Source of the DNA: Psammoneis japonica
Taxonomy: Eukaryota
NCBI GenBank assembly: GCA_008632985.1
Contig: QPGO01000116.1
Location: 1-64,000, forward strand
Direction: 5' to 3'
Length of the DNA stretch: 64,000 nt
The position numbers and the translations under genes were made by a program. The notes below the pieces were generated by a model. That model had not been told where the DNA came from. It did not search any database and was given only the letters and a program-made list of their open reading frames with translations. Of this stretch, positions 1-47,078 are shown in pieces. How positions within the stretch are numbered: position 1 is the stretch's first letter; each line of letters starts with the position of its first letter.

Positions 1-3000
1 ATTCGTTGCCCCATTCCTCCAAGGCGATCATCCTTGAGCATTCTCGTCCACCTCCCCGCAACCCGCGAGCCAGCAACTGCCATGAGTCCATTGCGGCCAA
101 CCTTCACGACCAACGCCTTGGGAGTGACGGTGATGTCAACTTGTCCAACACGACTCCTGCTGACTCTGGTGACCCCGCTCCAAATGTGGTGCCACTTCGG
201 ACAATCCCATCCTGGCGCACCTCACCAAGCGCAAGCCACTGCCACCCGGTGATCTGCAACGTCTGTTGTCTCCTAACCAAGCCCCCAACGCTAGTCGACC
301 GGGGCCATCCGCCGCTCCCTCTACCCCGCCAGCTCCTGCCGATGACATGGAACTTAACGGCCACACTGCCGCCGCGTTGATGACCACAATGTCATTTGCT
401 CTGCCTCTGCTCATCGCTCCACACGCACTGGTGCTCAGTCGATCGTGGGGCCAACGGCGGCATTGCTGGGACGACGTTCGCGTCATTGCACGCACCTCTC
501 GCCAAGTCGACGTTCAGGGCATTGACGACCATCAATTGGTGGACATCCCCATTGTCACCGCTGGTGCCGTCATTGAGACCCAGCGTGGTCCCGTCATCGC
601 CATCCTCCATCAGNNNNNNNNNNNNNNNNNNNNNNNNNNNNNNNNNNNNNNNNNNNNNNCAAACAGGATGTCAACGATCGCTCTGTCAAGGTGCCCAACG
701 GCTTGCAATGTGTTGCCACTCCTGATTTCCATGTCATCCCCATTGACATCAAGGGCGGCCTGCCTTGTGTTGCCATGCGACCTTGCACTGACGCCGAATG
801 GGACACCCTGCCCCGTGTCATCCTCACCGGTGATGACACATGGGATCCTTCCGTCCTCGATCACTCTGCCACTGACGACGACCAGTGGTGCGACGTGATC
901 TCTGACCTGCAGGACGATCCCACTGCCAACCCATTTGATGAATGCGGCAACTGCCGTCATCGTGTCGTTGTCAACGAGACCATCATGTCCGCTTCCTTGT
1001 CTGCCGATCACGCGTCTGCCCTCGATGATCACCTCATTCCAAACAACGACGTGTTCTGTGAGTGTCATCCACATGCGATTGACCCCAAGGACGATGACGT
1101 TCCGCCCCCGGAGCGCACTGTGCAGCCCAAGGACCCCCCCTTCGAGTCTCTTCGGCCTTGCTTTGGCTTCCTGCCCACCGATGCGGTCCATCGTACTTTT
1201 GACTGCACCACGCAGTGCGTCTGCATGCCCGCCGGTGCACACCTTAGGAAGGCCTGCAAATCACCCAACCCCGCCCTCAATGTGCACCGCCGCAACGAGC
1301 CTGTCACCACTGACACCGTTTGTGCCAACACCCCGGCCGTCGACTCTGGTTGCACCAGCGCCCAACTGTTTGTTGGCACCGAGTCTGCCGTCACTGACGT
1401 CTGCGGCACCAAGACGGACAAAGAGTTTGTCAACACACTCGAGGATCAATCCATGAGCGTGGTGCCATCCAAACTCCATTGGCAACCGTGCTCAAGTTGA
1501 ATCAGCAACAAGGTGCTCGGGATTCTACGAGCCCTCTTCATCTCCAGCTGGCAAGTGAGCCTCACCAGCAACACCAAAACTTTGCCGAGCATTGACACCA
1601 GACCGTGAAGCGCATGGCAAACACTGTCATGGATTGTTTCGGTTCGCCTGCCCACACATGGCTGCTGGTGCTCATGTGCGTGTGCTTCACACTCAACACA
1701 CAGTGTCCCCACGTCTCCACTGGCGCACGCCCCTCGAGACTCTCACTGGCTCCACCCCGGACATCAGTCCATTGCCACGCTTTCACTGGTGGGAACCCAT
1801 GTGCTTCCACCTCAATGACTCCGATTGGCCATCCAAATCCCGTGAGTTGCGTGGACGCTTTGTTGGCATTGCTGAGCACGTCGGCCACCAGATGACCTTC
1901 AAGATTCTCTCTGACGAGACTCAGAAGATCCTCTGCCGGTCCAACGTACGATCCGCTGCCACCGATCCTGCCGTTCGAAACCTGCGTCTTGATCCTCCTG
2001 ATGGGGAGCCACCTGAACCCATCATCAAATCTCGCCATGACGACAACCCGTCGATTCACCGATGGGGAGATCAGGACACCAAGATGCCAGTTTTCGATCC
2101 GCAAGACATCATTGGACGCACCTTCCTCATGCAGCCACAAGAGGACGGACAACGCCACAGAGCTCGCATTGTCAAGGCCATCGAAGACCACGAATGGAAA
2201 GTGAACGGCAATCCTGAGCTCACTGAGTTCATCTGCTCTGTCAACAACGATGAATGCGAGGAAGTCCTTGCCTGCAACGACATCATGAATCACATTGAGC
2301 AAGAAGACGAAGACACTGCTGTTTGGAAATTTCGACGCATCGTGTCACACGAAGGACCTCTGAAGCCTCATGACCCAACCTGGAATGGCTCAAGCTACAA
2401 CATTGTGCTTGAATGGGAAAGTGGGGAGATCACGTCCGAGCCTCTTGCCATCATCGCCAAGGACGACCCCGTCACCTGCGCCATCTATGCACGAGAGAAC
2501 GGACTTCTCGACACTGATGGCTGGAAGCGGTTCCGCACCATCGCGAGGCGCCAGAAGAAGCCATTTTGCATGGCCAACCAAGCCAAGCTTCGCTCCTTCC
2601 GCACTGCACCTCGCCACAAGTGCGGATGCGAAGTTCCCCGGGACTGCAAACACGCCATGTCACCAGACGAACGCAACGGCAACCGCAAATGGGGAGACGC
2701 AACTAATCTCGAGATGGACCAACTCGGGGAGTGCGAAGTCTTCCATGACTGCGGGCCCTTCGAGTCTTCCACTCCTCCTGCGGGACACAAGAAGATCCGA
2801 GTGCACCCAGTGTGTGACGTGAAACACGACAGTCGCCACAAGGCACGACTCGCAGCCGATGGGCACCTCACGGACGTGCCCAATGACAGTGTCTGCTCCG
2901 GAGTGGTCTCCCTCCGTGGCCTTCGGCTGATGATTTTCCTGGCCAAACTCAACGAGTTGGAGACATGGGCCACCGACATTGGCAATGCCCACCTTGAAGC

Positions 3001-4396
3001 CACCACCAAGGAGAAGCTCTACATTGTAGCCGGACCCGAATTTGGCAATCTCGAAGGACACATCCTTGTCATCCACAAGGCCCTGCATGGACTGCACAGC
3101 TCCGGTCTCCGCTGGCACGAGCGCTTCGCCGACTGCCTGCGAGCTGAAGGCTTCTTCCCCTGCCGTGCCGAACCCCACATTTGGATGCGCAGGAACGGCG
3201 ACCACTGTGAATGCATTGCCGTTTATGTGGATGACCTCGCCATTGCTGTGAAGGACCCTCAATCTTTCGTTGATGCTCTCACGGAAAAGCACAAGTTCAA
3301 GCTCAAGGGTGCGGGACCCATTGAGTTCCATCTGGGTTGCGACTTTTCCCGGGATCCCGACGGCACCTTGTGCCTGTCTCCGTGCAAGTGCATCGAGCGC
3401 ATGGTCGACAGCCACACCCGACTGTTTGGGGAGAAACCTGCCACCAACGCCCTGTCACCGCTGGAGAAGGGTGACCACCCCGAGCTGGACACTTCCGAAC
3501 TGCTGGGGCCCGATGGCATTCACAAGTTCCAGTCTCTTGTTGGTTCACTCCAATGGGCAGTGTCCCTTGGTCGAGTTGACATTGCCACAGCCGTCATGTC
3601 ACTCTCTGGCTTCCGAGCTGCGCCCCATCAAGGCCACTTGGATCGTGCCAAACGCGTCTGTGGGTGCCTCTCCAAGATGCGACACGGCGCTCTCCGCATT
3701 CGCACGGAAGAGCCCGACTGTTCGGATCTCCCTGCTCCGGCCTGTGAATGGATGCATTCCGTGTGCGGCGAAGCAGAAGAGATGATCCCGAAGGACGCTC
3801 CACCGCCCCTTGGCAAGTTCGTCACTGCCACCCACTACGTCGATGCAAACTTGTGCCATTGCATGCTCACCGGACGCTCTGCCATGGGAATGCTCCACTT
3901 CCTCAACAAATTCCCGGCTGATTGGTCCTCTAAGAAGCAAGCCACCGTGGAGACTGCGACCTGCGGGTCTGAATTTGTTGCCGCAAGGACTTGTGTCAAG
4001 CAGATTGTCGACCTGCGCATCACCCTGTGCTGCCTTGGCGTCCCGATCCACAATGTCAGTTGCATGTTCGGTGACAACAAGTCGGTTGTAGACAGTGCCA
4101 CCATCCCGCACTCCAAGTTACACAAGCGACACACCGCACTGTCGTTCCACCGTGTGCGTGAGGCAATTGCCTCTGGTTGCCTTGAGTTCCACTTCATCGA
4201 AGGCTCCCGCAACCCTGCTGACATTCTCAGCAAGCATTGGGGTTGCTCCCAAATCTGGGACCTTCTCCGCCCCCTCATGTTCTGGAACTTCATTCCATCC
4301 GAAGTCGAATCTGTTTCTGTGGCTCCTCAAGCAAACTGGGGAGTGACAGGATTTGAACAGGATTTGGGTGCGCGCGAAGCATCGCGCGCTGTTTAG
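1..4396 (+). pseudogene. Frameshifted, hypermutated copia gag-pol (PR-IN-RT-RH)
   Basis: ORF pieces 266-898, 691-1500 and 1592-4396 lie in different frames. Many conserved Tyr are replaced by Cys/His. Confidence 0.9.
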
Positions 4397-4619
4397 TTTA
4401 CCGTGCACAGTTTTGTGTGCTTTAGTTCCGCGCGTTCACGCGCGATGTAGTTTGCTTTCGAGCCACAAGGCTCACAAGAACAATGACAGTAGCCCGATTG
4501 TGCCAACTCACACGTCTTTCGGCTCCTGCAACGGTCTCTGAGCGGAGACTCATCTGCCATTTAGACAGCAGTGAGGAGTTGTTGTTTGAATTCTTGCCAT
4601 TTGCCTTCAATTTCTGTCA
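4344..4619 (+). repeat. 3' LTR, family A (276 bp)
   Basis: TG...CA termini with 6-bp inverted repeat. Near-identical to 6352-6627 and to the reverse complements of 26470-26745 and 33115-33389. Confidence 0.95.
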
Positions 4620-4938
4620 GGCCCAGTGCAGGATTGCAGCCCTTGCACAGGCCCGCACTTCGAGACCAGTTGGGACACTCCACCCATGGCTTCCAAAGCT
4701 GCAGTCTTTGCACCCCGCAAACCACGTGCTGCCAACCTCCACGTGTTGACCACTGTCACCCTTCACAGTCTTCGTTTGGGAAGTGATGGAGATGACAACT
4801 TGCTTCTCACATCTCCTGATGGGGGAGCCTCCTTTTCCCGTCATTGAATCTGTTCACAACAGTTCAACCGGTTCATCAGATCAGGAGTTCAGGACATCCA
4901 AGCAGCTTCGTTGTCTTCGGATCCTCCAAGCATCGCAC

Positions 4939-5808
4939 CATGAGACCAGGCCTCCTGACCAGATGCTCCAAGTCTCGTACCTCGAGACCAGGACTCCTGA
5001 TTGGATGCCTCAAGTCTCGTGCCTCGAGACCAGGCCTCCTGATTGGATGCCTCAAGTCTCGTGCCTTGAGACCAGGCCTCCTGACTGGATGCTCCAAGTC
5101 TCGTACCTCGAGACCAGGCCTCCTGATTGGATGCTCCAAGTCTTGCACCTCGAGACCAGGCCTCCTGATTGGATGCCTCAAGTCTCGTGCCTCGAGACTG
5201 GGCCTCCTGGTTGGATCCCCCAAGTCTCGCACCTCGAGACTGGGCCTCCTGATTGGATGCCCCAAGTCTCGCACCTCGAGACCAGGTCTCCTGATTGGAT
5301 GTCCCAAGTCTCGCACCTCGAGACTGGGCCTCCTGATTGGATGCCTCAAGTCTCGTGCCTCGAGACTGGGCCTCCTGATTGGATGCCCCAAGTGTCGTAC
5401 ATCGAGACTGGGCCTCCTGATCGGATGCCCCAAGTCTCGTGCCTTGAGACCAGGCCTCCCAACTGGACTCTCCACGTCTCGTGCCTCAAGACCGGGCCTC
5501 CCAATTGGATCCTCCACGTCTCATACCTCAAGACTCGGCCTCCGGATTGGATCCCTCAAGTCTTGCGCCACGAGACTCGGCCTCCTGATTGGATCCCCCA
5601 AGTCTCGCACCTCAAGACTTGGCCTCCTGATTGGATCCCCGAAGACTCGTGTCACAAGACTGGCAAGTCCTTTTGGATCCCAGAAGTCTTGCAGCACGGG
5701 ACTGGTTGCCCCAATCAGACATCTGCAGCCTTGCACCACAAGATGTCTTGCTCCAATCCGATCCCCGAAGGCTTGCACCTTGAGACTCGTTTCTCCAATT
5801 GGATCAGT
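4939..5808 (+). repeat. 42-bp tandem repeat, about 20 units (consensus peptide LETRPPDWMPQVS[Y/C/H])
   Basis: CTCGAGAC at 4981 and 5023 gives a 42-bp period. Units degenerate towards the 3' end. Confidence 0.95.
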
Positions 5809-6351
5809 CTCTCAGGAGATGCAGCTGAGCTTGCAATCGGATTGGTGGAACACAAGACCACCGCTTGTGCCTTTGAACTCATGCTTGCTCTGTTCCCCGA
5901 GTCGTGCAAACGCCATGCCACCCTGCACGAGCACTGCTCTGTTTTTCTAGCAGCAGCCCAGTGTGGCAACCGTCCCAAGAACCAACAGACGGCCATCAGT
6001 CTTTATGACCTTTGCTCAGGAAGTGAAGGCGATGTCAACTTGTTTGCATTGTCCTGCAATGTTGCCCCGCCGTTCAACATTGTCAACCAGACCAAGCTTT
6101 GCTCCTTCCATTGCAAGTGCGGATGTGGAATCCCACAAGATCCCAAGTGTGCCTTGAGCTTTGAAAAGCACAACGGCATCTGCAATTGGGGAGACGCAGC
6201 TCATCTCAAGATGACCCACTTGGAGAATGCAACGTTGCTCTCGGATCTTGATCCTTTCTTGTCTCCTCATGTTTTGGTGCTTTGACTCCAAAGTTCTTTG
6301 TTCAATCCAAAGTCGAATCTGTTTCTGTGACTCCTCAAGCAAACTGGGGAG

Positions 6352-6627
6352 TGACAGGATTTGAACAGGATTGAGGTGCGCGCGAAATGTCGCGCACTGT
6401 TTAGTTTGCCACGCACAGTTTTGTGTGCTTTAGTTCCGCGCGTTCGCGCGCGATGCAGTTTGCTTTCGAGCCACAAGGCTCACAAGAACAATGACAGTAG
6501 CCCGATTGTGCCGACTCACACATCTTTCAGCTCCTGTGACGGTCTCTGAGCAGAGACTCATCTGCTGTTTAGACAGCAGCAAGGAGTTGTTGTTTGAATT
6601 CTTGCCATTTGCCTTCAATTTCTGTCA
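6352..6627 (+). repeat. LTR, family A (276 bp)
   Basis: Preceded by PPT AACTGGGGAG. Termini TGACAG...CTGTCA. Confidence 0.95.
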
Positions 6628-10138: not shown

Positions 10139-11209
10139 CACATTGCACTTGGCACAATCAAGTTGACCAGACATGCAGCATGATGCAAAGCTGCACCATG
10201 TTCGCGGAGAAGATGGAGGTGCTCAATGTCTTTGTGGTGGATCTGTTTGAGTTGGACTTGTCATTTTGTGATTTTGGATGCCATGGAATTGATCGACTTT
10301 TGTGCTGTGACACAAAACGCACCCACGATTTAGGCTGCAAATGCTTCCCTGTTGGAACCTGTCTTCAAATCGTCCTGGTCATTCACAACTCAAGGCGGTG
10401 TGGTTGCGCAGGTCATGCCAATGAAAATGTTGCCACTGCAACAATGCATCCTGCCTCCTCTCTGGTGTTGGCACATGAGCTTTGTCATTCGCTCTTTGAA
10501 CCAGGCAATGAGTGCCATTGTGGGCGTGGCAATGACTCGGCCTCACGGGGAAGGCAAACAAGCCAAAAGGTTGTGACAGAGTGAAGTGCATCCCTGGTTG
10601 CACAAACAAGGCCTTTTTGGTAAAGGCGATCCAAGCGGACTGCCCAACCGCTAAAGTGTGAAAGCTGTTTCTATTTAAAATGATTTGAGGGTCTTGTCAC
10701 TGGCTTGTCAATTTTGTTTTGGCCAAAAGTTGTCATCCAGCATGTGTCGAATTGCACTGCTCTCCCAACACCCCGTAGAGTCTTTGGGACTGCCCTTGGG
10801 TCTAAAGTCAACGACGCTCGTGTGTTGGCCCCGCAAGATTGCCGAGGTAGACAAAAATCATGGTGGGCAATTCAAATCCCGCGTCTTGGAGGGAATCCTT
10901 GCCACGCACCACGGCGAGTTGAAAGCCACCGTTTGTCGCGGCAAATGAAATGATCCAAGCCAGAGCTTCTCCGTCTGACGACGCTTGGCAAAAGGAAGGA
11001 AAACACTAGTCTAGTTGGAGAAATTTGATAAATAGGAAAAAATACAGCCCGCATAACCGAAACGATTTCTCAAAACTGTTGCACGACGAAAGTGTTTGGA
11101 GCAGCAGAGCACGCGAAGAAGGCATCTTGCCGAGGGAAATGCGTTGTAGGATACAAGAAATTTGAAGAACACCTCACGAAATACTGCATGGATAGTTTCC
11201 AAACGTGGC

Positions 11210-13126
11210 TCACAGTTCATCACTCTTTGCCGTGACACTTTCAAGCATCTCCTTAGCTTGCAATGGAGTATAGCCATATTTCTTCATGTTGCCACTCAAC
11301 GTTTCCCAACTTGGAGAGTATCGATCATAACAGCAAAACGGAGACACCTTGTCCAAGTGGTCAGAGCAACCTTCACTCATATGAAATGCATCCATGGTTG
11401 AATTCCAGATAGGTATTTTCACGGATCTCTGCTCCCTCTCCTCGGCCTTGAAGTTGATCTGTGCTCGAAGAGTGCATTCGGAGACGAGACAGTTACACAT
11501 ATAAAGAGTCCAAACCTCTCCATCACCTGTCCTGATAGATAAAAGACGGGTCCAAGTTTCGTCGTTTGTTTTTAAACCCGGTGAAAAGCGCAGCACTCTA
11601 CTCCCCGGAAAAGCGCCGTCAAGTTCATAATGTAAAACAGATTCGGTTGCCGTCATCTCTGTGTCTTTCCTCTCCACGTATCCAAAGAAGCGTAGTATAC
11701 CGCCCACTACCATTTTCATGGTCCAGTCGGAAAGTGGAGTCCCCGTTACGTCTCCATTGTTGGGTAGCCAGTCTCCTCTATCAATCTTGGTACAGATGGC
11801 GACCTTCCATGGAAACAACATCGATAAGGTAGTGGCACCTGTTACTCTGTAGCTTTCAATCTGGGTGTGAAAGTCATATCGAGGAGCCAAGACCTCTCCG
11901 ATCATCTCGAATGCTTTGCCCCTGACCCAGTCAACATTTACAATTGAGGGGTTCTGATGAGTTGTGTAAAAGGCAAGGTGGAAGGAAACGTCGTTGTTTC
12001 GGATTAAAGTGGCATTAAAGTGGTTGGCGACCGTTCCAAGACTTTCGTGCTCTTCAAAAAACACCTTGGGAGATGAGATCCAGGTTGGTGCAATGTCGTT
12101 TATTCTTCGGAGGACCTTCAAATCGTACATTAACAAATGATTCTCAAAAAACTGAGATACGTCAAAGAGCCACGGCAGCGATCGGCGGGTGAGTTCCTCT
12201 GGCTTCTGCTGGGCTTGCCAGTTTCCATTATCGGTTCCATGAAAGACTTCAACCCTTTTCATATCCGGCACAGATTCCCATAAGACTGTGTTCATAGCTA
12301 ATATGTCCATTTGACGCTTGGGCATCTTCAATTCCAAGTCTTCACTGGGGCATGGCGTGTTTCCCTCTGCGTCATAATTTACTTCGAGAGACTCGCCTCT
12401 TTGACGATACTCCTGAGCAAGCGCCAAATCCATGGCCATTTTTCGAATCATCGTCTCCGTCGAAACAAACAAGTCGTGCTCTCGAGGGAGCTGGTGAACG
12501 TCGCAAGCCGCAACCACGAGGTAGTCAATGGGAAATCCAATGGATTCCAGGTGCGCCGCAAACTTCTCACCGACATACCTCGACATTCCGTTTCCTGCAT
12601 ACCCATTGGTGAAAAACAAATGCGCACCTGCAGAAGTCTCTTTGGTAACATTTTGGACAACCCTGTCGACGCCCAATCCCCGCGCAATGTCTTGAGGAAA
12701 AAGAAACAAGGTATGGTACCTCGGCGACAAGTAGTCCTCAAAGGAATGGCATGCAAAGAGAAGCTCGCGGTGCGATACTACGACGAGAATCCTTTCACTG
12801 TCAATGCTTGGGCCATGGATGGTCCAAGTATGCATCTGGTGAAGGACATCGTTATAAGGCCGTTCCGTCTTGTCCAATAACGATCGTTTAATTGGCATGG
12901 TGCGCCGTTCTGCTTCTTCCTGATGATGGGCGGGGTGGATCAAGAGAGCATTTTGGCCAATCATTGATGCATAAAGGATGTTCCACATCCCACAATAGAG
13001 TAGCAAAAGGGAGAGAATGGCAAAGATGTGACTCTTTGCTGTTCGCATTGCCCTTCTGCCTCCATTTTGAAGCCGGGTACACAATACACTATGGTTCGAA
13101 GCAGCAGTCCTGTTTGTGGCATCCAT
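11210..13126 (-). CDS. Uncharacterised ~638-aa protein with N-terminal membrane anchor (type II membrane protein-like)
   Basis: Uninterrupted ORF with normal Tyr and TpA content and a hydrophobic segment IFAILSLLLLYCGMWNILY. Start taken at the ATG at 13126 and is uncertain. Confidence 0.75.
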   Translation of the reverse strand: MDATNRTAASNHSVLCTRLQNGGRRAMRTAKSHIFAILSLLLLYCGMWNILYASMIGQNALLIHPAHHQEEAERRTMPIKRSLLDKTERPYNDVLHQMHTWTIHGPSIDSERILVVVSHRELLFACHSFEDYLSPRYHTLFLFPQDIARGLGVDRVVQNVTKETSAGAHLFFTNGYAGNGMSRYVGEKFAAHLESIGFPIDYLVVAACDVHQLPREHDLFVSTETMIRKMAMDLALAQEYRQRGESLEVNYDAEGNTPCPSEDLELKMPKRQMDILAMNTVLWESVPDMKRVEVFHGTDNGNWQAQQKPEELTRRSLPWLFDVSQFFENHLLMYDLKVLRRINDIAPTWISSPKVFFEEHESLGTVANHFNATLIRNNDVSFHLAFYTTHQNPSIVNVDWVRGKAFEMIGEVLAPRYDFHTQIESYRVTGATTLSMLFPWKVAICTKIDRGDWLPNNGDVTGTPLSDWTMKMVVGGILRFFGYVERKDTEMTATESVLHYELDGAFPGSRVLRFSPGLKTNDETWTRLLSIRTGDGEVWTLYMCNCLVSECTLRAQINFKAEEREQRSVKIPIWNSTMDAFHMSEGCSDHLDKVSPFCCYDRYSPSWETLSGNMKKYGYTPLQAKEMLESVTAKSDEL

Positions 13127-13787
13127 TTTTATTCCTGTTTTGATTGTGTGAGTCTTTGCCAGAGACTTATTGGAGAAGAAGCGAGGGCTCATTGATCGAT
13201 CCGCGGTGCCAACAATAAGCCACTCAACGCAACTTTTCAACGGACGGAAAATTTTCTGCTCACGTGTTTTTGGTCCCGCGCATGCATCTGTGACAAAACC
13301 ACGTGGAGGTTCTACTTCACAAGTGGAAACCCACATGATTCCTTGAACATCAACCAAAATCGATGCAGCATCGATTGGTTTCTTTGGCTTGAACTGTTTA
13401 TCTTTTACGAGATTGTGATGCTCTATGGTCCGGCAATGGCATCACGGCAACACGGCATCGCACACACTGTGCTTTTTTTGCCCTGCGCCGATCTCTAACA
13501 TTGATTTTAATCAAAGACGGTTTTGATGATAAAGCAGCAGTGTTTTGGTGTGCCGCGGCATCATGCGCGGCCTTTGCGCATTGATTTCTCACATTTCCGT
13601 TGAAAAGATGCTTCAAAACCAAAACACTGCAACTGTCACCCCTGTGGTAGGGGAGAATATGGTGATGTCATGGTTACGTGGCAGTTTATATCTTATTCAT
13701 TTTATATTTTTACACAAATGTCCTCACATTTGTTTGTGCATTTGCACACAAATGCCAATGGCAACAGGAAAAATCCTGAACCATGTT

Positions 13788-13923
13788 CTCCCCCAAAACT
13801 CCAACCACCAAAAACCGAGGGGTCGGAAGCACACTTTTGGGAGCTCTTTTTCTCCGCACAAAAAACACGCGTTTTGACAACTCGACCATGACGACCTCCC
13901 GTTCTTCGTCCCCTGCACCTGAC
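13788..13923 (+). repeat. Left terminal inverted repeat
   Basis: CTCCCCCAAAACTCCAACCACCAAAAACCGAGGGGTCGGAAGC...ACCATGACGACCTCCCGTTCTTCGTCCCC is the reverse complement of 20182-20320 with few mismatches. Confidence 0.92.
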
Positions 13924-15869
13924 TGCTCCTCCGTCCACACATGTGCCGAACCACCTTCTTCTCCCGTTTCTGCTGACATGCGTGGTGTGCTTCCTTCTAG
14001 CGGGATGCATCAAATTTTGGGCAACCAACATGCTGCTGCTGCACATGATGTTTGCACGGATGCTGCCGCTTCCAGCCAAATTGACGGCACCTTTTCCGAC
14101 GACGCTGCCTCCGCATCCATCTTGCGGGTCTCTCTTGATGTCTTCCAAAAGGCTCCGTGTGCTTGGCAGAGTGACATGTTGCGCCATGTGCTTCAAACAG
14201 GTCCCACTCGTCCCGCGCAACCTTTGTTGCTTGTCCGCCCCACTGGTGGTGGAAAGTCCCTTGTGCGAGACATTGTTGGTGTTTGCCTCAAGGGTGTCAT
14301 CCTCACGATCGTTCCCTTGTTGTCCTTGGGCTCGGATCAATGCCGTAAAATCATGAACCGTGCCATGCAACATCCATCACACGGTCCTGTTGCTTCCTTC
14401 CATTTGGATGAAGCACTCCAAAATCCATTGTGCATGCAGGCGTTTTATTCTTTGATGCAACGTTTGCCAATGGCGGTTCGTGGGACGACATTCCTTTTTT
14501 GTTCGCCTCAGTTGCTTGTGTCCAATGAGCAGCTTGTGAATCTCATTCTGAGATTTGCATCCAACGGATTGCTGCGGCTCCCAGCCTTGGATGAAATTCA
14601 TCTGTTTGTGAGTTTCGGGCTTTCTTGTCGGGTGGAGTTTCAACAACTTCGCAATGTCTTTTTCCATCACATTCAGCGGTGTTCCATTCCATTCCTCCTG
14701 ATGACGGCAACCTGCACTGTGCGTGCCGTCTCGTCCATGGAGGGTTTGATTGGATTCAAAATTCAAGACTGCTGTTGGCCACCTCCCTGGCATGTGATGC
14801 ACAGGAATGTTTCGTTCCTTGTTTCTTGCAGTGACCGCCCATTCACGGTGACATCCAATGTGCTGGCTCCGTTGCTGGGTGCTGCAACTGACGCGACCAA
14901 ATGTGTTGTGTGCTCTAACCGCCGCACAAAAATTGAATCCTTCCAAACAAATCTTTGAGATGTGGCTGGATCACAGCGACGCATGCCATTTGTTGGACGT
15001 CATTTTGCTGGTTGGTGCGCTCACCAAGGAACAAAAGGCTCACCACAATTCAACATTCATTGAAACAGATGCGTCCACACCCGGACGCTCCCTGTCGACC
15101 TCGGTTTCTTTGTGCCACAAGTGGTGCTTCCAATGCCGGCATCGATTCTCAACACATTGCCGGTGTTTTCCAAATTGATTTCCCTCTGTCCATCATTGAC
15201 ATGAATCAAGAGAAAGGCCACGCTGGACGCAGTGCGGCTTTGTCTGGTTGCTTCTACCAAGCTTTCATTTCTCTTGAAACTTTTCTTCATTTGTTCCTTC
15301 GCATCACAGACCCGGCGGAAAAAAAGGTCTCGCGCGATGCACGGCGAAACGAGCTTCATGACTTGATGCAGGTTCTCCGTCTGCTTGTTTTGCCCGTTTG
15401 TTGCCATCAAGCATCCTGGGAGGTGCTGCATTCTCATCCGACGCATGCAAGGATGGTCGACCCCCGTTTTTTGAATCCGTGTGGAGCCTGTGCCCATTGT
15501 CACGGAAAACACTTGGATCTCCACCCCGCTTTGAATCGTCCGGGCATTGTGTCCATGCTGTTCAATGTGTTCGTGCATGGCGAACATGCAATCCGGAACC
15601 TGCGCCTTGTGGATGCGGTTGTCGATGCCACTCACCGGTTCCCCGGCGCACCAGCTTTGTTGTTCCGAATCTCTGCGGCAAAGGTGGAGCCCAAGGTGGT
15701 CAAGCAAACCATCTTGGTTCTCATTGCGGCTGGCATGCTTGTTTGCGAGCCCACTGAGGACGAATCCAACAAGCATTGCATGACGTCAGCCCTTGCATTG
15801 GTTGCACCCGGCGCTGCGGAATTTGCAATGCATCACGATTCGTTTTGGGATTGTGTCCGCACCAAATAA
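13888..15869 (+). pseudogene. RecQ-like superfamily 2 helicase (frameshifted)
   Basis: Motifs RPTGGGKS (I), IVPLLSLGSDQ (Ia), LDEIH (II), MTAT (III), ATSGASNAGID (V) and QEKGHAGR (VI), plus a Cys cluster CCH...CGACAHC (RQC-like Zn site). Frame change near 14950-15080. Confidence 0.9.
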
Positions 15870-15919
15870 GAACAGTGGCAGTGTCACCTGCAACAGTCAC
15901 AAGTGATTGACAAACATTG

Positions 15920-18900
15920 TCACACAAGCGATCGCAGCCGATCAAATGCTTCTTGTGGCATTGCATCAACTTCTTCACCGGTGTTTTCACGAAACAAGGG
16001 ATCCTCCAATGATTCCCAAAGTCTTTCCTCACGTGCTTTTGCCCGACATCGTGTCTGTTGTAAATTTTTCTTTTCCATTTTTTCTTTGCCTACTTCAAAG
16101 ACGTTCTTGAATCCAAGGACGTTCACCGCGGCCTGTGTTATTTTGCCTGCGTTGCGATTGCCCACTTTTACATCAACCATCTCCGACGCAAACACAGACG
16201 CACCTTGTTCCACTTCATCTTCCGTCTCCTCCTCCGTTTCCTCCGCCTCATCATCATGAAGCGCACCAATCATCATGGGATCCATTGTCACCAATGCACC
16301 AGGCTCATTGACATTGTCATCCGATGTGTGGCTTGCTTGTGCCAGCCCCTCGAGCTCTTCCGCCATTGAAGCCGCAGCTCCTTCCACACGTGTCTCGTCC
16401 TCGTTCCCATCATTGTCGTGTGTCGCATCCGCCACCGACGACAGCAGCATCTCTTCCTCCGTCTGACAGTCTTCTAGCCAACGTTCCATCCTTTCGTCTT
16501 CTGTCTCCGCGTTCAATTCGGTCGTGAGGTTGGGCAATTCCTTCCAAAACAAATCCCGGCTGCATCTGCGTCCAGGGATTTCTACTGTGGCTTGTGTCAA
16601 ATGAAGCAACTCGGCTGCCAACTGCTTCTCAAGCACTCGGCTTGGCACTGACGTGGCCTTCTTTTGGTTGTCGCTGTCACGCTTGGGGTCGTTGTCCTGC
16701 AGGTCCACGCATTTGCGCTCAAACGTCTCGCTGTCTGCCAGCCTAGCGCACTCATTGGACGAGAACTGGATGCACTTGGCAATCATCGCTGCATTGCCAG
16801 AGTGCGTCTTCCAACCTTCGATTGTGTTCTGGAAATTCATCTTGTGGCAATGCCGTTGCATCAACTCTGTCAATCCATCCAGGGCCCAGCATGCCATGGG
16901 GTTGCCGGACCGGTCTGTGCCCTCGTAAAGAGGGTGGGCGCGGTTTGCTCGCATCATTTGCAACACTTCAAAAGGTGGCTTGCCACACAACTGTTCAATG
17001 GTTTCGACGCCAATGTTAAAATGGTGCGTCTTGCCTGCTGCCAAGAAGACAGGATTGAACGAGTTGTACAGCCACTTGATCACAACGGCATCGCCACACC
17101 TCACCGACGCCTGGAACAAACGACAACAGTGAATCAGTTTTGCATGTTGCAGCACCATGCAAAACACTTCATCGGCAGTCGTCGACATGGCTCTGTCCAC
17201 CCACGCCATGTGTTGCTCGGATGCGAACAAAGCACATTCGCCAGGTCCTTGTAACGCGATCCACTGATTGCACAATTCGTTGTCATTCAACAGCACAGTG
17301 CAAAAGGTGTTTGTGAGTTGACGTTCTGCTTCGGCACCCAACATCATGGCCATTGCAGCGGCTTGTTGGTGGCACTTTGTCACGTCTGTTCCACGGATCC
17401 GCTTCCACCCCAGTGCAGCTTGGAATGGCTGCAGCAACGACCCGCAGTGCAGAGCATAAATGGCACCCAAAAAATGGAAGCTGCCTCCATGCAGATCACC
17501 TGTAGAGTTGATGACCTGCCCCATCGCCTTTTCCAACACGCCAGCGGCAACATGCCAGTCCACGTGGCTGTGCGCCGAGGCCTGCATCAATTCCCGGAAG
17601 GACTTGACTCACATCTGAGACAGTCCATCACCCACCACCATCAACCAACGTGTCCGGTGGTCGTCAGCAAGGGCTGGGTCTTGCACAGCCTCGCCCGAAA
17701 CACCACGGGAAGACGTCGCCTCAATGATGTTGAACAGTTGCAAAAGGCCCAATGCCACCTTACCCGCGCCCTTGTCAGTGGTTTCGTCCTCACAAGAGAC
17801 AGCAGGAATCATGACGGAAACCCGTTTTGGCATGCCCCGCCAAATCTGCGCAGCACTACGTTGGAAATTTCGACAAGACTGGTGGAACCCCCGAGGCACG
17901 CGATTCGGAGACAGCCTGATTGTGACGTTCAGGGATTTCATGGTGTCTGCACCAGTCGCATTCTGAAAGGCAAAGACGGTGTCTCGGTCACGAGGAATGC
18001 AGTGGCGCTGCACACAAGCCATGGATGCCAAGCGAACAACACTCGAGCACCGAGAGACACGAGTGCCTGTGGAATCCACACTGTCAAAGAATGCGTCAAA
18101 GCACTGGACGTCGATGATGCGGGCATTGTTGGCCAGCGTTGGTTCAACAGTGTCACAGGCCGGCATCCCGAATGGCGATGGTGTCGATTGATCGACGCAG
18201 GTGATGACAGTCGGAGGCAACAGGGCCGTGGGGCAAGCGTCAAATCGAGGTGGCACGTGCGGCTTTACAAACATGCGAGACGCAGTTTTGGTCACCGCGG
18301 CGGATTCACCCTGGCGTTGATGTTTGAGGCTGCCAACAATCTGAAACCAAAGAGTCGCCAAGGCAAAGTGCGTAAAGCAAGTGCTCAAAGGGCAATGGTC
18401 ACTGCCACACAGTGTGTCACTCACCTGAGAATTGTCAAAAATGGCAATTCCAAAGTTGCCGGAATCCTTTGGGGTCTCATTGGTTTCTGAAAGGACCGTG
18501 GCATGGCTGGCAAAGGGACGCATCTTGCGCAAAAGAGTGCTCTGATGCGCCGACTGGCCAAAGCAAACAGACATCTTGGAACGAGACGCAGAATCAAAAG
18601 AGCCACAGGACGCAGCAGCGTTGCAGCACGCCCACCATGTGAACACTTTAGGGTTCCGGATGCGCATGATCGACATGAAGACATAAAAAACAAATCGATC
18701 CCAGACAGGAAGCAAGTGTTGCGCGCGAGATTGTTCTTTGCGAGCCTCGCAGCTCAACAATGAGCTGAGAACAATGTAACACTGCGGCATCGTTTCGCGA
18801 AACCGCTTTGCCATGTCGGTCAGGGCAACTTGAGACAGAATTGGAGAAGTTAATTCGATGAAACGACCAAAACAGGCACGCAAGGCATCCTCACACTCCG

Positions 18901-20220
18901 TCTCTACAAAATCACAAAAGGACTTCAATGCTTGGTCGTCCGAATCAATGGTGAAGAGTCGCCTGATCCGGTCAGTCAAAATTTCGCCAGACTTGCAGTG
19001 CGCCAGTTGAGCATCCTTTTCGTTTTTAAGCAAAACCATGTCATGCTCACGACAAAGAACATTGACCGCGTGGCCATCCCCCCACAGCTCCTGCAGACAT
19101 CAGTTCATCATGGCGGCGCGACGCTTTGTGTCCTTCATTTTCTTCAATTGCGTTGCAACGTTGCCCGCACGAGGGGATGCCGCCCACAACTGGAATGCAG
19201 TTACATTGTGGAACACATCCGAGTGCTTTAACTCATGTGAAGGAGCATCAGGGAGAGCGGCAGGTGCAGCACCAACGCCGCCACCACCGGCGGAAGTGCA
19301 TGGATGGGAAACTTCGGATGGCGTCAAATTGGGTTTGATGAGTTTCTCCCGTGATGGATTGGAGCACACCATCATTTCAACACTGTAGAAAAAGCTGTTG
19401 CACATCCGAACCGCCGAAGAATGGTGCTTTGCACAGACGGACCGGAGGAGTGGTTGCCACGTTAAATGGAAGGTGGGATGCGATGGCGATGCAAGCACAA
19501 CGAATTTGGTTCCAACTTGTAGCCTGACAACATCTTCCAGCATTAAACGCCGATGGCCGGAAGAAAGAATAGATGGCACAGTGTCCCACGGCATGCCCGG
19601 AAGTGGCGGCGGCGCTTGTCATTGCGAAGACGTCTTGGTTTCTGCAATTCCGATTCCGTGTTGCAGGAACGAGCAGGAAGCTTCCTGTCACCAGCAGAGG
19701 AGCTTGACGGTCGCCGCTTTTCATCAGATGGGTCAAGCTGAATGTCAAAGTCATGCATGGCCTCCTTGACAGCATGCGAGGTGTTGGGCGGAGAGAAGGA
19801 AGCGGCCGAGCAATCTGCATCAATGATGGGATCACGGAGAAAAGCAAGCATCGCATCTTTGAACAACTGAACCTTGACGTCGGTTTGTTGCTTTTGTTTT
19901 TTGACCTGTTTTCGGAGCTGCACCCCAGACCGCTTGAGAGAAGGCTCATCTGTGCCTTCCATGACATGACGATGCGAACGAGAATCCAGTTTCTCCGGGG
20001 ACGCAATGACAGGAGTGGACCAATCACGGCGCTGTGTTTGTGTTTCAGGCACAGGATCCGGCGAACAGAAGCCCAAATCCTCCGGATGGCAAATCGGCTG
20101 TGTTTGGGTAACGACAGCGGGTGCAACGGCACCGGCCAACACAGGAGGAACTGCCGCATCAGATGTGGCAGGCGGGGACACGTCAGGTGGTGTGGGGGAC
20201 GAAGAACGGGAGGTCGTCAT
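15920..20220 (-). pseudogene. Large transposase-like gene (Academ/DUF6589-like), disrupted
   Basis: ORFs 17609-19039 and 15920-17590 are in one frame, separated by a single TGA (probably CGA to TGA in GDGLSQM*VKSF). Motifs IFDNSQ, VVGDGLSQ, GDLHGGSFH and LDGLTE. Probable 84-bp GT-AG intron at 18341-18424. The 5' part is in other frames. Confidence 0.65.
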
Positions 20221-20320
20221 GGTCAAGTTGTCAAAACGCGTGTTTTTTGTGCGAAGAAAAAGAGCTGCCAAAAGTGCGCTTCCGACCCCTCAGTTTTTGG
20301 TGGTTAGAGTTTTAGGGGAG
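20182..20320 (-). repeat. Right terminal inverted repeat
   Basis: GGGGACGAAGAACGGGAGGTCGTCATGGT...GCTTCCGACCCCTCAGTTTTTGGTGGTTAGAGTTTTAGGGGAG. Confidence 0.92.
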
Positions 20321-20736
20321 CTGTGGAATGGGAATTTTTACTTGTGGAATGCACACACTCGTGTGGATGTTAAGATTGAAACTCAACGCACGGCGAAGCC
20401 GTGCGCGCACAACCACGCACACACACACAGCTCCCCTGCCACAGGGGTGTGCAACTGTCACCATGGCCTGCACCGGGCTGAGCTTCCAAATGATGGCTCA
20501 AGTGGGGCAAGCCAATTTCCAGTCAACAAGCTGAAAAATTTGTTCATTTGCAGGAGCTGATTCTCCTGAGCACACGCACACACGCGTGGGATCGCATTCA
20601 ACGATTTCGGTGCTCATGGTGTGCGATTCGCTTTTCGTCTTGAGGATGGTCTTAAGTCGACTTTTTTGGCATGCTCAAGGAAGCAGTGAGGTGGCACGAC
20701 CTCGAAAATGGGGGAGCTGTCAAATCAGCCACGCGT

Positions 20737-20879
<143 letters not shown>

Positions 20880-23049
20880 CGCTCACAATGTGATGAGTGT
20901 GCTGCTGCAGCAGCTTGGGAGAATGTGCACGTTGCCATGCTGGTTTTGCAAGGAAATTTGCTGCTGCCAGCTCTGCTCTCTGCCTCATCCCAAAGCACAC
21001 CAACAATGGCTGTGATGGTCGCAGGCTGGTGGTTCCCATGCTGGAGATTGCTGGCTGGCGTGCGCAGCGGTGGCTGTGGATGGTGCGTTGTTCTCAAGAA
21101 GAGAGGTGGCAGCTGAGCCATCAAGCAGCACAGGAGGGGCTGTGCCATCAAGAACCTGCAGCAGCAATTTGTTTGACAAGGTGGTGGTGTGCAAGAACCC
21201 AAGCTTGGTGTGTGACAACACTGCTGTTGCTTCAGCACAGAGGAGGAAAAGATTGTTTGTGTTTTGTCAGAGTTTTTTTTTCTGGCTCCAATGGGCTCAT
21301 CCAAAATGGGTTCTGCTGCCAAGTGGCTGGGGTGTGTGAGGTGCACAAACAATGGACCATGCAGCATTCCAGGAGCATCCCCCCCATCACAGTTTGCACT
21401 GTCCTTTGCTGCAAGGGCAGCACAATGTTTGCCATTTCTGTCCCTTGTTCTTGCTGCGCCAGTTGCCTGGTGGTGGTGGTGGTTGGAATTTGGCATTCTG
21501 GGAGGCACATGACCCACTTTGCCAGCACCCTGCTTTTGTTGGCATCATTGGGTCATTGTTTGAGTTTTTTCATTTGGCCTGGCTTCTTCACACCAAAAGC
21601 AGCAGCAAAACAAAAACTCTGGGTTGTTCTTGGGTGTGTGCCACAGCACCCATGATGGAGCTCTGCATGTGAAATGTGGCACACACATCATGATGATGAG
21701 GAGAAAGGAGTCATTGTGTTTCACTGCCAGGCAGCAGTGGCTCTGCCCTTTTTTCCACTCTCATTCTTTTGCCCAGCACACACACTTTGGGTGCAAAAAG
21801 CCTCATGTGTGGTGGGGCAGCACTGCACACCATGCTCTTGTCTGTGTGCAGTGTGGCACATGCTGCACATTTTCCTCATGTGTTGTGTGCAAGAGAACAG
21901 CAGCAGAAGAACAGACAGACAAACACCAAATGTGCACAAGCCACACACCACAAGAGGTGTCTCCTCAACATCATCATCTTTCATCTTTCTCCAAGGTGTG
22001 TGTCACCAACATTTCCATGCAGAGTCTTGCCGTCTTTTGGCACAAATGTTGGTGCACAAGATGCCCTCCTTTTTCTCTTCTTCTTTTCTTTGTGTGAAAA
22101 CACACACAAGATTTTCTGCTGGGTGCCAGCCGGCACGCATGAAGGAGAGTCTTTTTGTGAAGAAAAATGTGCTGCTGTGCTGTGAGATTCTTGCTGTTCC
22201 AGTGTGGTGAGTCCAGCAAAGTTGAGCTGGCAGAGTGCTTTGCAGCATGTGTGGCAGGCTCACACATTGCACCAGCCACTTTGTGTGTGTGTGTGTGTGT
22301 GCATGTGTGTGTGTGAGCCCCCACTTGACTGGTGCTGGTGCAACTGAAATTGGTGGTGGCACGTTCAGAACCAAGTGCCAACCAAGCCCTTGGATTTGTG
22401 GGTGCAAATGAATCTGCAGATTGCATCAAGGCACCCAAGAAGCACCTGGAGCCCTGCTTGGTGACTTCTGGTGCTGCTGATGCCACAAGGGAGACATTGG
22501 TGCACAAGATTCAACGGGGGTCAATGCACGTTTGGGCCCACGAGAAAGTTTGCCATTGCATGAAACAGTCGCCCATTTTCCCACGACAGCACCCACCCTT
22601 TTCCCCTGCACACAATGCTGGTTTGGTGGTGCTTCTTTGCCATGAGTCATTTTGCATTTTCAACCAGCCCGGTTCCTTTGCCAGGCTGGCGTGGATTCTT
22701 GCTCATCTTTGCTTGGATCTTCTTCTCCTTTTTTTCTTGTCCTGTCAATTGGTTTTGGCTTTTGTTTGTCTCTCTTCCTTGTCCTTGCTGGAAAGCTCCA
22801 GCGTGGCTTGTGTTCTCACCACCTTCTGTGCAGGTTGTTTGTTGGTCATCATTTCCTTGCCCTTTTTGTTGCTCTTCTTCTTCTTCTTCTTGTCATTGCT
22901 GCACCCTCCTGCATTGAACCACACCCAGCTCACTTGCCCTGCATGTTTTCACCTCCTTCGTCATCTCCCTGCCAGTCACACTGTCTTGTTGGGTCAGCAC
23001 ACTTGGGTGCCGGGGTGTCTTCCTCCTCCTCATTGCCTCCATTGTCATT

Positions 23050-23520
23050 TCCCTCTCAAATTTTCTTTTCCTTCATGGCCTTGTGATCCCAAAGTTTCCA
23101 GCAGCTCTCCGGTGTCAACAGCTCCAGAGCCTTGTCATTTGCCACACATGGCTCTGCAGCTTTGGATGAGGATGCAGAACAGCCAGGGTTCAAGTGGATG
23201 TCATTGGCAGGTGTCAGCCACTGTCTGGTCTGTGCATCAGCCCACTGGAAGAAGGAGGTCATTCTCTGGATCAAAATCTTTGGGGAGATTGTTGCATGTG
23301 TTGGAGCACCATTTGTTGCAAACAACTGTTTCTCTGAGGGTTGCAGTCATCTGTGGGAACAAACTTTTGGAGCTGCTCCTGCATCAGTTGGTTGACATTG
23401 AGGTTGTGGTGGTCGTCAAAAAGGGAGTGGGCAAGCAAGTCCCCCAACATGTCCAGCATTTGGGAGCAGGCAACTTGGCACCCACAAATGATGTGTGTGT
23501 CTGGCTTTGGCATGCACACC
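23050..23520 (-). mobile_element. Degenerate transposase relic, possibly Plavaka-like
   Basis: The minus frame reads KWCSNTCNNLPKDFDPENDLLLPVG*CTDQTVADTCQ*HPLEPWLF. Restoring Tyr/Arg gives WY...P..YTDQT..D.YQRYPLEPW.F, reminiscent of Plavaka-type transposases. By-eye recognition. Confidence 0.45.
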
Positions 23521-25029
23521 CTCTTGCGGAGGCATTTTAGCAACTTTTTGTGCTGAAGAGCCTTGGACACATCGAACTTCTTTTTCTGGAGTGAGCAGCA
23601 AACTGCAAAATCCTCCAGTGGTGTCAGAACTGTCGCACAGTGTGGCCAGCAGAAGAGAAGCTTCCTCTGCCAGCGCAAAGCTGCAACCAAGCAGAAGGGA
23701 TGATGCTTCCTCCTCAGCATCATCAGCGGGTTTTGCTGGCGGATTTTTGGCACCCGCTGTGTTGAAGTCTGAGTTTGCAAAAGGCAAGTGAACTGAAAAT
23801 CAACATGGTGTTGTCAATGTGTCTGAGGCTCACTGCTTGTTGTCTCACTCAACTTTCTTGCCGCAGGCCTGTTCCAGCCCCAGGTGATGAGAAATCCATC
23901 ACGCAAGAGGCCGATTGTCTGTGCAGTTCAGTGCAATGAACTCCTTCAATTTTGATCTTTTTGAAAATCCAAAGGTGAGCGTGTGCCAGAAAACACATGC
24001 AAAGTGCACAATCGCCCTTTGATTTGGCAAAAACCCGATTTTGAAGGAGTTTGATGCACCAAATGCAAAAACGGGCCAGCAATTGGAGTCGAACCTGTGT
24101 GCATCACCTGGAGATGGAACAGGCCCGACTCAGCCAATTCTCATTGTCTTTCCCAGCATGAGCACATCAACAAATCCAACGTCGTCGTCACATCATCTGA
24201 CCCATTTGAGCAATGGCGTTGACCAGATGATTTTTTTAAAGACTTTGACAAAGGAGCTGCAATGCATTCAGCCAAGCATTCTTGAGTGAGAGAGAGTCAG
24301 GCAGATGTGAGCAAAAATGCACAATGATGCTGGCACGCGGCTCGAGAAAGAAGCAGCCAAACAATGTTGACAAAAATTGAAAATGTTCTGATGCTGTCAT
24401 TCTGTGAAATGACAAATGACAGTGAACAGAGCTTCTCCCTGGCTTGTGTGCACTCTAGATTGATCGCAAAAACACAAATGTCAAATCTGAAAATTGAAAA
24501 CTGTGGCTTGTGAATGAGCACTCATGGATTGTTTCATCCACCGATGGCATGAAAGAGGTCAAACACAGTTGTCACGTGGTCAAAGCCAAATTAGAAAGCA
24601 GAGCATGGTGACAAAATTGGTTTGATGATGCCATCATCTGATCTCAGTGTCAAGAGCGGGTTAAGTTCACCTCGTTGCACTGCGAGTCACGTGTCTTGAA
24701 TCCCGTGTGACCCGCTCAACTCGATTTTTTTGGAAGTTTTAGCACTCTAGACTTTGACCCCAGCCAGAGCCACAAAAGCACAAGACATGAGCATTGTTGG
24801 TCTCATGTTCTTCAAACGAATGTCTTGTGACAATGAAGTGGGTGTGCATTGTTTGTGGCATCTGGTGGTTCAAAACAGAGCTGACTTTTCGTGGAGCACC
24901 TTTGTCACATGGGCAAGTGCGAGAGTCAATGTTCAGTGATTGGTTGGCCCCAGCAACTGGCGTTCACCCCCATTCCAGCAGGCCCCCAAAAGTGTGTTGA
25001 ACTTTGCGTCTGTGTGCTTTCAGTCGATC

Positions 25030-25465
25030 AAGGTGGGTTTCCTTGAGTTTCATTTTGTCGAAGGCTCCCGCAACCCAGCTGACATCCTCAGCAAGCGTTG
25101 GGGCTGCTCCCAAGTCTGGAGCCTCCTTCATCCTCTAATGTTTTGGAACTTTGATCCCAAGGCTTTCAACCAATCTGACCTTGAATCTGTTGCAGTTGAC
25201 CCCTCAAGCAAACTGGGGAGTGACAGGATTTGAACAAAATTTTAGTTTGTCACACACAATTGTGTGTGCTCTCAGTTCCACGTGTGTCATGCGACACAGT
25301 TTGCTTTCAAGCCACACTGCTCACAAGAACAATGACAGCAGCACCAATGTTGTGACACCAGTCTTTTGGCTCCTGCAATGGTCTCTGCACAGAAACCCAT
25401 CTGCCATTTAGACAGCAGCAAGGAGTTGTTGTTTTCTTCCACCCAGTCATCTTCATTTTCTGTCA
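25030..25465 (+). mobile_element. Remnant of a family-A-related copia: RNase H C-terminus, PPT and diverged LTR (25221-25465)
   Basis: FLEFHFVEGSRNPADILSKRWG, then AACTGGGGAG, then TGACAG...CTGTCA (245 bp). Confidence 0.88.
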
Positions 25466-33100: not shown

Positions 33101-33114
33101 CAAGACTGTTAATC
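33101..33114 (-). promoter_or_regulatory. Putative primer-binding site complementary to a tRNA-Asn(GUU) anticodon arm
   Basis: Directly after the 5' LTR the element reads GATTAACAGTCTTG, the complement of CAAGA-CTGTTAA-TC, which is a 7-nt anticodon loop with GTT. Confidence 0.6.
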
Positions 33115-39662: not shown

Positions 39663-39689
39663 GTTGTTGTTGTTGTTGTTGTTGTTGTT
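39663..39689. repeat. (TTG)n microsatellite
   Basis: Directly visible upstream of the aminotransferase. Confidence 0.9.

Positions 39690-45013: not shown

Positions 45014-47078
<2,065 letters not shown>

Follow-up and report, generated by a model that had tools for sequence, protein, structure and literature searches.

TpA steps are turned into TG or CA in retrotransposon copies of the diatom Psammoneis japonica after insertion

The window analysed here is a 64,000-nt stretch of the diatom Psammoneis japonica (assembly GCA_008632985.1, contig QPGO01000116.1, positions 1–64,000, forward strand), which holds long terminal repeat (LTR) retrotransposons of two copia families (A and C), other repeats, and host genes. 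The repeats are strongly depleted of the dinucleotide TpA. The observed/expected ratio (o/e) of TpA was 0.03–0.29 in the repeats of the window against 0.57–0.62 in its gene blocks, and the targets here are transposons. In the retrotransposon stretch under study (2221–4300) the ratio was 0.10, compared with 0.62 and 0.57 in the host-gene blocks at 36000–47600 and 55000–64000. The features on which the analysis rests are the following:

1–4619, plus strand: copy A of family A, a Ty1/copia-type LTR retrotransposon truncated by the contig start; assembly gap at 614–659; TpA o/e 0.11
1559–4396, plus strand: open frame of copy A, with a Pfam RVT_2 reverse transcriptase (RT) at residues 407–616 and an RNase H-like end; mostly Cys/His for Tyr, no stops
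2221–4300, plus strand: stretch under study in copy A; 10 TA remaining in 2080 nt; six Cys/His pairs versus copy B
4344–4619, plus strand: 3′ LTR of copy A, ending TG...CA, with a purine run immediately upstream
26470–33389, minus strand: copy B of family A; LTRs at 26470–26745 and 33114–33389; assembly gap at 28889–29458
47662–54903, plus strand: family C, second copia family, full length; 2216-aa open frame; LTRs at 47662–47895 and 54670–54903; 5-nt target-site duplication
36000–47600, unstranded: host gene block used as control (histone deacetylase, aminotransferase, ribose-5-phosphate isomerase, others); ordinary TA content

Judged by its sequence features, the RVT_2 frame at 1559–4396 and the LTR at 4344–4619, the family A substrate is classed as a Ty1/copia element. 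The match to PF07727 (RVT_2-type RT) had an E value of 9e-24 in copy A and 4e-33 in family C. Upstream of the RT no rve integrase match was obtained at E 0.001, and family C has an SH3_retrovirus match there; motifs in this region, identified by eye, are presumably integrase-like. The RT of copy B carries a one-base deletion, and this copy belongs to a different sublineage from copy A. No target-site duplication was evident at the ends of copy B, and copy A is cut by the contig start. The LTRs of family C end in AGT...ACT and not TG...CA. Such a structure resembles the Ty1/copia CoDi elements of diatoms, for which the accessible text describes an RVT_2 RT, LTRs, a short target-site duplication and, as in family C, some families without TG/CA ends (PMC2806351).

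The first-pass annotation had claimed that copies A and B carry independent Cys versus His replacements at the same ancestral Tyr, and had quoted eight peptide pairs, all of which were present in the translations. The pairing of Cys with His held at four codons (2615, 3413, 3743 and 4244), while the remainder were Cys/Tyr (2255, 2627, 3389, 3836 and 4061); codons 2990 and 3665, outside its list, also pair Cys with His. The two copies were aligned over 2420 nt at 94.5% (copy A 2200–4619, plus strand; copy B 26470–28888, minus strand). Between 2221 and 4300, 114 substitutions were counted, with 21 adjacent pairs, 15 of which were TG/CA, and random placement gave a mean of 6.2 adjacent pairs and a maximum of 20 in 10,000 trials. 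Two of the 15 TG/CA pairs, at 3415 and 3997, fall in CpG-class columns. The 703-aa RT-RNase H stretch of copy A retained 5 Tyr, alongside 34 Cys and 38 His.

TG and CA can stem from either TA or CG, and Cys and His from either Tyr or Arg, so a test of Tyr against Arg was needed. The family A search of the genome returned at least 41 places at 95–100%, and 40 of 447 candidates were scored. The 29 best loci outside the window, together with A and B, formed a set of 31 copies, a sample that therefore leans to the states of copy A. The 68 TA-class columns of this set held 512 TA, 1001 TG, 582 CA and 1 CG, and the 154 CG-class columns held 4302 CG, 242 TG, 207 CA and no TA; 17 pyrimidine-purine columns were mixed, with a single column carrying both TA and CG. 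As the TA-class columns are almost devoid of CG, the change runs from TA to TG/CA, the direction that the first-pass annotation had proposed. In the outside relatives of the copy A protein (the best 120 of 1526, 52–67% identity), Tyr led at first codon positions in 27 of 31 TA-class columns and Arg in none; Arg was commonest at 35 of the 45 CG-class columns. At the six Cys/His sites, where Cys or His in relatives would speak against a Tyr ancestor, the relatives mostly carried Tyr (97/120, 120/120, 114/120, 117/120, 67/120 and 100/116), with Arg rare.

Family C was represented by 20 fetched stretches, of which 17 had two LTRs, giving with the window copy 18 LTR pairs (LTRs cut one base short). 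Its relatives carried Tyr at 12 of 21 columns and Arg at none, the remainder being mostly Phe or Leu. Target-site duplications offered a test of polarity free of outgroups. They were exact over 5 nt in 11 of the 18 elements, and five of the seven inexact ones differed at TA steps only, some of these steps being made by the LTR-target junction itself; one of the five is also explicable by CpG decay, and two further elements were unexplained. Both families show that the change runs from TA to TG/CA and that CpG decay is a separate, slower process. Two family-C loci (L040 and L047), neither with a target-site duplication, had an unusual 3′ end and its flank in common, perhaps reflecting sub-structure or a recombinant.

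The two LTRs of an element are identical at insertion, and differences between them accumulate afterwards. The family-C LTR pairs differed by 63 TA/TG, 36 TA/CA, 39 TG/CA, 24 CG-class, 10 other transitions and 4 transversions, so that TA-class differences accounted for 138 of the 176 substitution events; in the window copy all 6 events were TA/TG/CA. Since paired LTRs identical at insertion now differ at TA steps, the change occurred post-insertion. Agreement between copies in TG versus CA was at chance, both in family C (z standard deviation (SD) 1.00, maximum 2.2, 153 pairs) and in family A (z SD 0.97, maximum 2.4, 465 pairs), which shows that the hits were independent between copies. The family A copies fall into two sublineages, 13 with A and 18 with B, marked by eight columns, none of them TA-class. 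These markers were detectable and the agreement test was therefore able to see inheritance; both Cys and His occurred within each sublineage at all six Cys/His sites. The claim of independent mutation thus stands for the Tyr sites, while a few non-Tyr TG/CA pairs between A and B, at third codon positions, look inherited: the pairs at 2404 and 3247 appear to reflect one hit against an inherited CA, because all 18 copies of B's sublineage carry CA there. We conclude that TA is converted to TG or CA after insertion, separately in each copy. A locus on another contig (L043) was near-identical to window positions 46530–50254 and is possibly allelic. Away from gaps it differed by two substitution events, both TA-class, which hints at recent activity on a tiny sample.

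The spectrum was most fully resolved in family C, where 332 columns held 1447 TA, 2495 TG, 1939 CA, 19 CG and 14 other states, about 5900 in total. Two hallmarks of the hypermutation described in the alga Bigelowiella natans, namely that changes are almost only T/A to C/G transitions and that they are confined to TpA on both strands, were found here. Individual copies had lost 61–88% of their TA steps, 3–22% of CG steps and 0.15–2.3% of other sites, and these three losses rose together over the copies (Spearman 0.6–0.7; TA versus CG 0.71). Per base, the TA hazard was a median of 210 times (42–470) that of other substitutions and 25 times (8–50) that of CpG decay. The step is highly specific, as 75% of TA steps were lost, against an A>G change of 0.4–0.8% after A, C or G (AA 0.83%, versus 0.39% for CA and 0.41% for GA). 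TG and CA outcomes were interleaved in every copy, and strand tracts, sought at six lags, were not found (same-strand adjacency 0.509 versus 0.506 shuffled). Hit and spared sites did cluster (0.682 versus 0.655, SD 0.002).

Sequence context modulates the hazard. With A as the target, it was highest at ATAT (2.29) and ATAC (1.83) and lowest at CTAA, GTAG and TTAG (0.25–0.26), and ATAT sites are nearly gone, with 1% left. The A>G fraction was 0.46–0.51 before a pyrimidine and 0.20–0.28 before a purine on both strands, a preference also seen in family A; the preferred context is ATAY. Selection by codon position was sought in family C and not detected, as losses were 0.77, 0.67 and 0.83 at positions 1, 2 and 3 and Tyr codons were not spared. 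Because TAC and TAT become TGC/TGT or CAC/CAT, Tyr is lost, no stops are gained and the frames stay open. Open frames of about 2200 aa were retained in several hit family-C copies.

The distribution of hits is regional, with selfish DNA hit and host genes spared, as in Bigelowiella. The hit fraction of an LTR fell as the TA content of its 500-nt flank rose (Spearman −0.65, p 2e-5; 36 LTRs of 18 family-C elements, not fully independent). Within single elements the two ends could differ strongly, at 4/14 versus 13/13 LTR hits in two elements, and age is therefore not the explanation of LTR sparing. LTRs adjoining ordinary DNA are partly spared, and the effect is weaker at domain edges. The ribosomal DNA (rDNA) was spared, with 115–116 TA kept in the small-subunit (SSU) gene at six loci (6 of 8 matches fetched), although selection and homogenisation could mask hits there. 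Three further repeat features of the window bear on the targets:

6301–6627, plus strand: another family A LTR with 51 nt of upstream sequence; mostly TA- and CG-class differences from the LTR of copy A
13788–20320, unstranded: element whose two ends are 132-nt inverted repeats; DEAD-like helicase frame, no RT match; TpA o/e 0.10
20500–26400, unstranded: older repeat block depleted of TA (0.03) and CG (0.25)

The block at 33400–35900 resembles the last of these (TA 0.03, CG 0.09). The element at 13788–20320 is probably a DNA transposon, and, lacking an RT, it was as strongly TA-depleted as the retrotransposons; non-retro DNA is therefore also targeted. Its DEAD-helicase match is weak (E 0.003), and two long minus-strand frames of unknown kind accompany it; its TA is erased and its CG kept. 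C5-cytosine methyltransferase genes are present in the genome. Three of them (L129–L131, on G000 C301 and C297) encode almost no Tyr and lie in loci of TpA o/e 0.07–0.10; five others lie in loci of 0.36–0.57. Extra copies of these genes thus seem to be hit by the erasure.

The signature was also searched for outside this genome. Among 49 related metagenome loci, found with the copy A protein as query, which favours such loci, three (L078, L093 and L095) combined a TpA o/e of 0.15–0.32 over the match with Cys/His at Tyr columns. L093 and L095 were 94.5% identical; of the 73 substitution events between them, 46 were TA-class. Their best matches in the P. japonica genome, among the 40 scored, reached only 67–71%, and they therefore come from other genomes. 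Four of 270 proteins carried the signature, P0054 of a set of 120 and P0383, P0375 and P0317 of a set of 150; the best own-genome match of P0383 was 46%. Collapsed assemblies can hide the signature in relatives. Seven other metagenome relatives (L075, L076, L099 and L109–L112) showed strong CG loss (o/e 0.07–0.22) with ordinary TA. CG loss without TA loss in other genomes shows that CpG decay and TpA erasure are separable.

Taken as a description of spectrum, strands, context, edges and rate, we are highly confident that a host process turns TpA into TG or CA in repeats, post-insertion and copy by copy. Several observations set limits to this reading. In the relatives of family A, Phe leads over Tyr at 2627 and 2813 (some genomic copies retain TAC at both), Met is commonest at 3854 and 4178, and a minority of relatives naturally has His at 3743 (16/120), 4244 (10/116) and 3290 (33/120). 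Six of 41 testable family A columns were sublineage-linked in TG/CA at p<0.05, with about 2 expected, and some states were therefore inherited. The pyrimidine preference was not significant between L093 and L095 (p=0.10).

Repeat-induced point mutation (RIP) of ascomycetes disables repeats after insertion by dense dinucleotide-specific transitions on both strands; it turns CpA into TpA, makes stops and lowers GC. The process in P. japonica shares the dense dinucleotide-specific transitions on both strands of inserted repeats, and differs in that TA is removed, no stops or strand tracts arise, rDNA is spared and sparing appears to follow the flank and not homology. Fungal RIP was considered as a candidate and rejected: neither its defining C:G to T:A direction nor its gain of TpA was found, and relatives and junctions indicate that TpA was lost.

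The closest known system is that of Bigelowiella natans, as described in the accessible text of a preprint (bioRxiv 10.64898/2026.01.13.699255). There, 230 of 231 mutations were A>G or T>C, all at TpA, at a rate raised about 1000-fold, in asexual lines of which only some had the process on. The two systems agree in T/A to C/G change only at TpA, on both strands, regionally, at the DNA level and far above background, and in TpA-poor, CpA/TpG-rich windows with transposon domains. The Bigelowiella case concerns a rhizarian, two viral inserts (nucleocytoplasmic large DNA virus and virophage), mutation-accumulation lines and a main-region TpA Rho of 0.45; here the host is a diatom, the targets are many dispersed LTR copies and other repeats, and TpA o/e falls to 0.03. 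Timing, independence, ATAY context and edge sparing were here read from copies, and the rate is a relative hazard (42–470 times), not one per generation. The accessible preprint text has no mention of diatom, LTR or copia. The spectrum is therefore already described in Bigelowiella viral inserts; what is new is a second lineage of the stramenopile-alveolate-rhizarian (SAR) group, with transposons as targets. That preprint was the single prior description found. The literature searched, which mostly did not cover subscription journals, yielded no account of TpA being lost from the repeats of diatoms; the accessible part of the CoDi paper has no mention of TpA or dinucleotide (PMC2806351), and a term search of the accessible part of a 2025 diatom transposon preprint returned no TpA, dinucleotide, hypermutation or RIP (10.1101/2025.10.24.684338).

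CpG decay offers a further parallel. According to the accessible text of one study, the transposons of diatoms are marked by CG methylation, set by DNMT5, and by repressive histone modifications (PMC9998398). The decay of methylated CG shares its targets and its TG/CA products with TpA erasure and runs in the same copies; unlike it, CpG decay starts from CG in separate columns and is about 25 times slower.

As a mechanism, we propose that T:A pairs at TpA steps would be converted to C:G in the chromosomal DNA of silenced repeats by a host process. A TadA/ADAT2-type enzyme may deaminate adenine in DNA to hypoxanthine, which the following round of replication would read as G. The enzyme would be steered to heterochromatin, and homologous pairing between copies would not guide it; in kind, the process is probably that behind the TpA hypermutation of B. 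natans. Since outcomes are not shared between copies, the spreading templates were apparently unhit, which would fit inactivation. The context is compatible with such an enzyme. TadA-derived editors favour YAY and TAT, and like TadA editors and ADAT2 on DNA, the process turns A to G with a strong 5′ T and a 3′ pyrimidine (T over C), TAT being best (PMC11983105, PMC10188366, in their accessible parts); unlike engineered TadA editors, which also edit CA, it leaves CA at background (0.39%). Profile searches of the genome gave 5 matches to PF14437, 9 to PF00383 and 4 to PF02137 (two genes). From motifs and Pfam, we take these to include an organelle-type TadA, ADAT1, ADAT2, RibD, a dCMP deaminase, another small deaminase and an editase-domain gene. 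An ADAT2-like gene is thus present, and of the two editase-domain genes the second has relatives widespread in centric and pennate diatoms. At another locus (L054, G000 C79) a single frame of 491 aa joins a zinc deaminase domain with a 2OG-Fe(II) dioxygenase.

The explanation as a whole, enzyme class included, is held to be only somewhat more probable than an even chance, and several points tell against the enzyme. The own-genome searches returned no standout deaminase, expansion or chromatin-domain fusion, with the limit that intron-split or divergent genes may be missed, and ADAT2 is expected in any eukaryote, while the signature was absent from 46 of the 49 related metagenome loci and from 119 of the 120 closest proteins. 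To our knowledge, no natural enzyme is tied to this TpA signature. An A two bases upstream is favourable here, a position on which the accessible text of the editor papers is silent (PMC11983105, PMC10188366). Sequence does not show whether A changed to G or its partner T changed to C, and a modified-base route therefore keeps some probability; the Bigelowiella authors, in the accessible text, likewise proposed an adenine deaminase (ADAT2) without showing it and called the case not conclusive (bioRxiv 10.64898/2026.01.13.699255).

That route is the strongest competitor, though we consider it unlikely. A mutagenic base mark at TpA in heterochromatin, such as methylated adenine or modified thymine, would deaminate or mispair as a by-product of silencing, in the way that CpG decays from 5-methylcytosine. 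TpA is palindromic like CpG, its sites are hit singly on either strand with no tracts, TA loss tracks CG loss over copies (Spearman 0.71), and the edge effect follows domain position. A passive route is hard to reconcile with a TA loss that is a median of 25 times faster than CpG decay and near complete at ATAT (1% left), and where algae and ciliates are known to methylate adenine symmetrically, the step is ApT and not TpA.

An improbable alternative is a homology-triggered, RIP-like process in which duplicates are recognised by pairing and an adenine-directed enzyme acts in place of the fungal cytosine-directed one. Several repeat kinds are hit and host genes are not, and duplicated C5-methyltransferase genes lie in TA-erased loci. 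The larger hypermutable region of Bigelowiella is, however, single-copy (bioRxiv 10.64898/2026.01.13.699255, accessible text). Repeats are hit, but the two equally repeated LTRs of an element differ by flank (4/14 versus 13/13, two elements), the six rDNA loci keep 115–116 TA in the SSU gene, and there are no strand tracts. Such a trigger concerns targeting and can be compatible with a deaminase.

Slightly less probable again is an error-prone polymerase of the pol eta type, copying silenced repeats and misinserting at A:T pairs. Pol eta tends to make A>G errors at TA and at AA steps, and AA is indeed slightly raised (0.83%) over CA and GA (0.39% and 0.41%). It also yields many AA hits and transversions, whereas AA lies about 90-fold under TA, and of some 5900 states in the TA-class columns 14 are non-transitions; the spectrum largely refutes it.

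A change at the RNA or cDNA stage, through editing by an adenosine deaminase acting on RNA (ADAR) or through RT error, followed by insertion, is very improbable. The genome has two editase-domain genes, and ADARs like a 5′ U (bioRxiv 10.64898/2026.01.13.699255, accessible text). Against it, TG and CA are interleaved in every copy, paired LTRs and host target-site DNA differ at TA steps, an RT-less element is also hit, and TAG is among the least-hit contexts. The LTR-pair and target-site data refute it unless they are mis-assembled. ADAR hyperediting in its usual form, one-strand A to G fixed before insertion, was likewise rejected, as both strands change post-insertion.

We give as little credence to an artefact of assembly base-calling or polishing. 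The three listed sequencing runs stem from one sample that lacks a library record, are not independent and possibly represent the assembly's own sample. In the contigs of run X1, about two thirds of the depth at 3765 nevertheless still shows G, the base carried by 20 of the 31 copies, loss scales with copy age, and the same signature occurs in separate metagenome assemblies. In these contigs, which are short and informative at few sites, there were transitions only, at 20 listed places. Opposite polarity or a CpG origin, in which CpG decay would turn Arg into Cys/His or fungal-type RIP would make TA out of CA/TG, is almost certainly wrong: CpG decay is active in the copies (449 of 4751 states in 154 CG columns), turns Arg into Cys/His at other sites and accounts for the two CpG-class pairs among the 15 TG/CA pairs of 2221–4300, but TA-class columns hold 1 CG in 2096 states, relatives carry Tyr and TA is depleted, not enriched, which refutes it for the Tyr sites.

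A wider proposal is put forward tentatively and is held to be less likely than not: a natural, heterochromatin-guided double-stranded DNA adenine deaminase would serve diatoms and chlorarachniophytes alike as a genome defence, the adenine equivalent of RIP across SAR; it would be patchy in diatom-type genomes, with ATAY pointing to the TadA/ADAT2 family. If the cause is such an enzyme, engineered adenine base editors would have their native counterpart in it, and since diatoms are transformable and editable it is testable. In the unrelated alga Bigelowiella the mutation pattern may defend the genome. The many dated retrotransposon copies make timing, independence, context and targeting readable from sequence. 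In genomes of this kind, TA-class differences inflate the ages drawn from LTR divergence, and the long open frames that dead copies retain may be annotated as live genes.

Other parts of the window were also inspected. The frame at 4750–6285 (plus strand) contains a 42-nt tandem repeat at 4919–5799 with a 14-aa unit and no Pfam match; its units differ from one another at one position, which is Tyr, Cys or His, and the signature is thereby seen inside a tandem array. An island of ordinary TA (0.49) at 11000–13700 holds a 743-aa frame without a Pfam match and has sharp borders, with TA-erased blocks on both sides. The named relatives of the aminotransferase of the window, among the 120 listed, are diatoms (Cylindrotheca, Attheya, Seminavis, Fistulifera, Nitzschia and others) at 54–66% identity. 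The ribose-5-phosphate isomerase gene is flanked by an inverted pair, 41605–42363 and 42839–43588, which is 68% alike and ordinary in TA; this old host duplicate is spared from TA loss.

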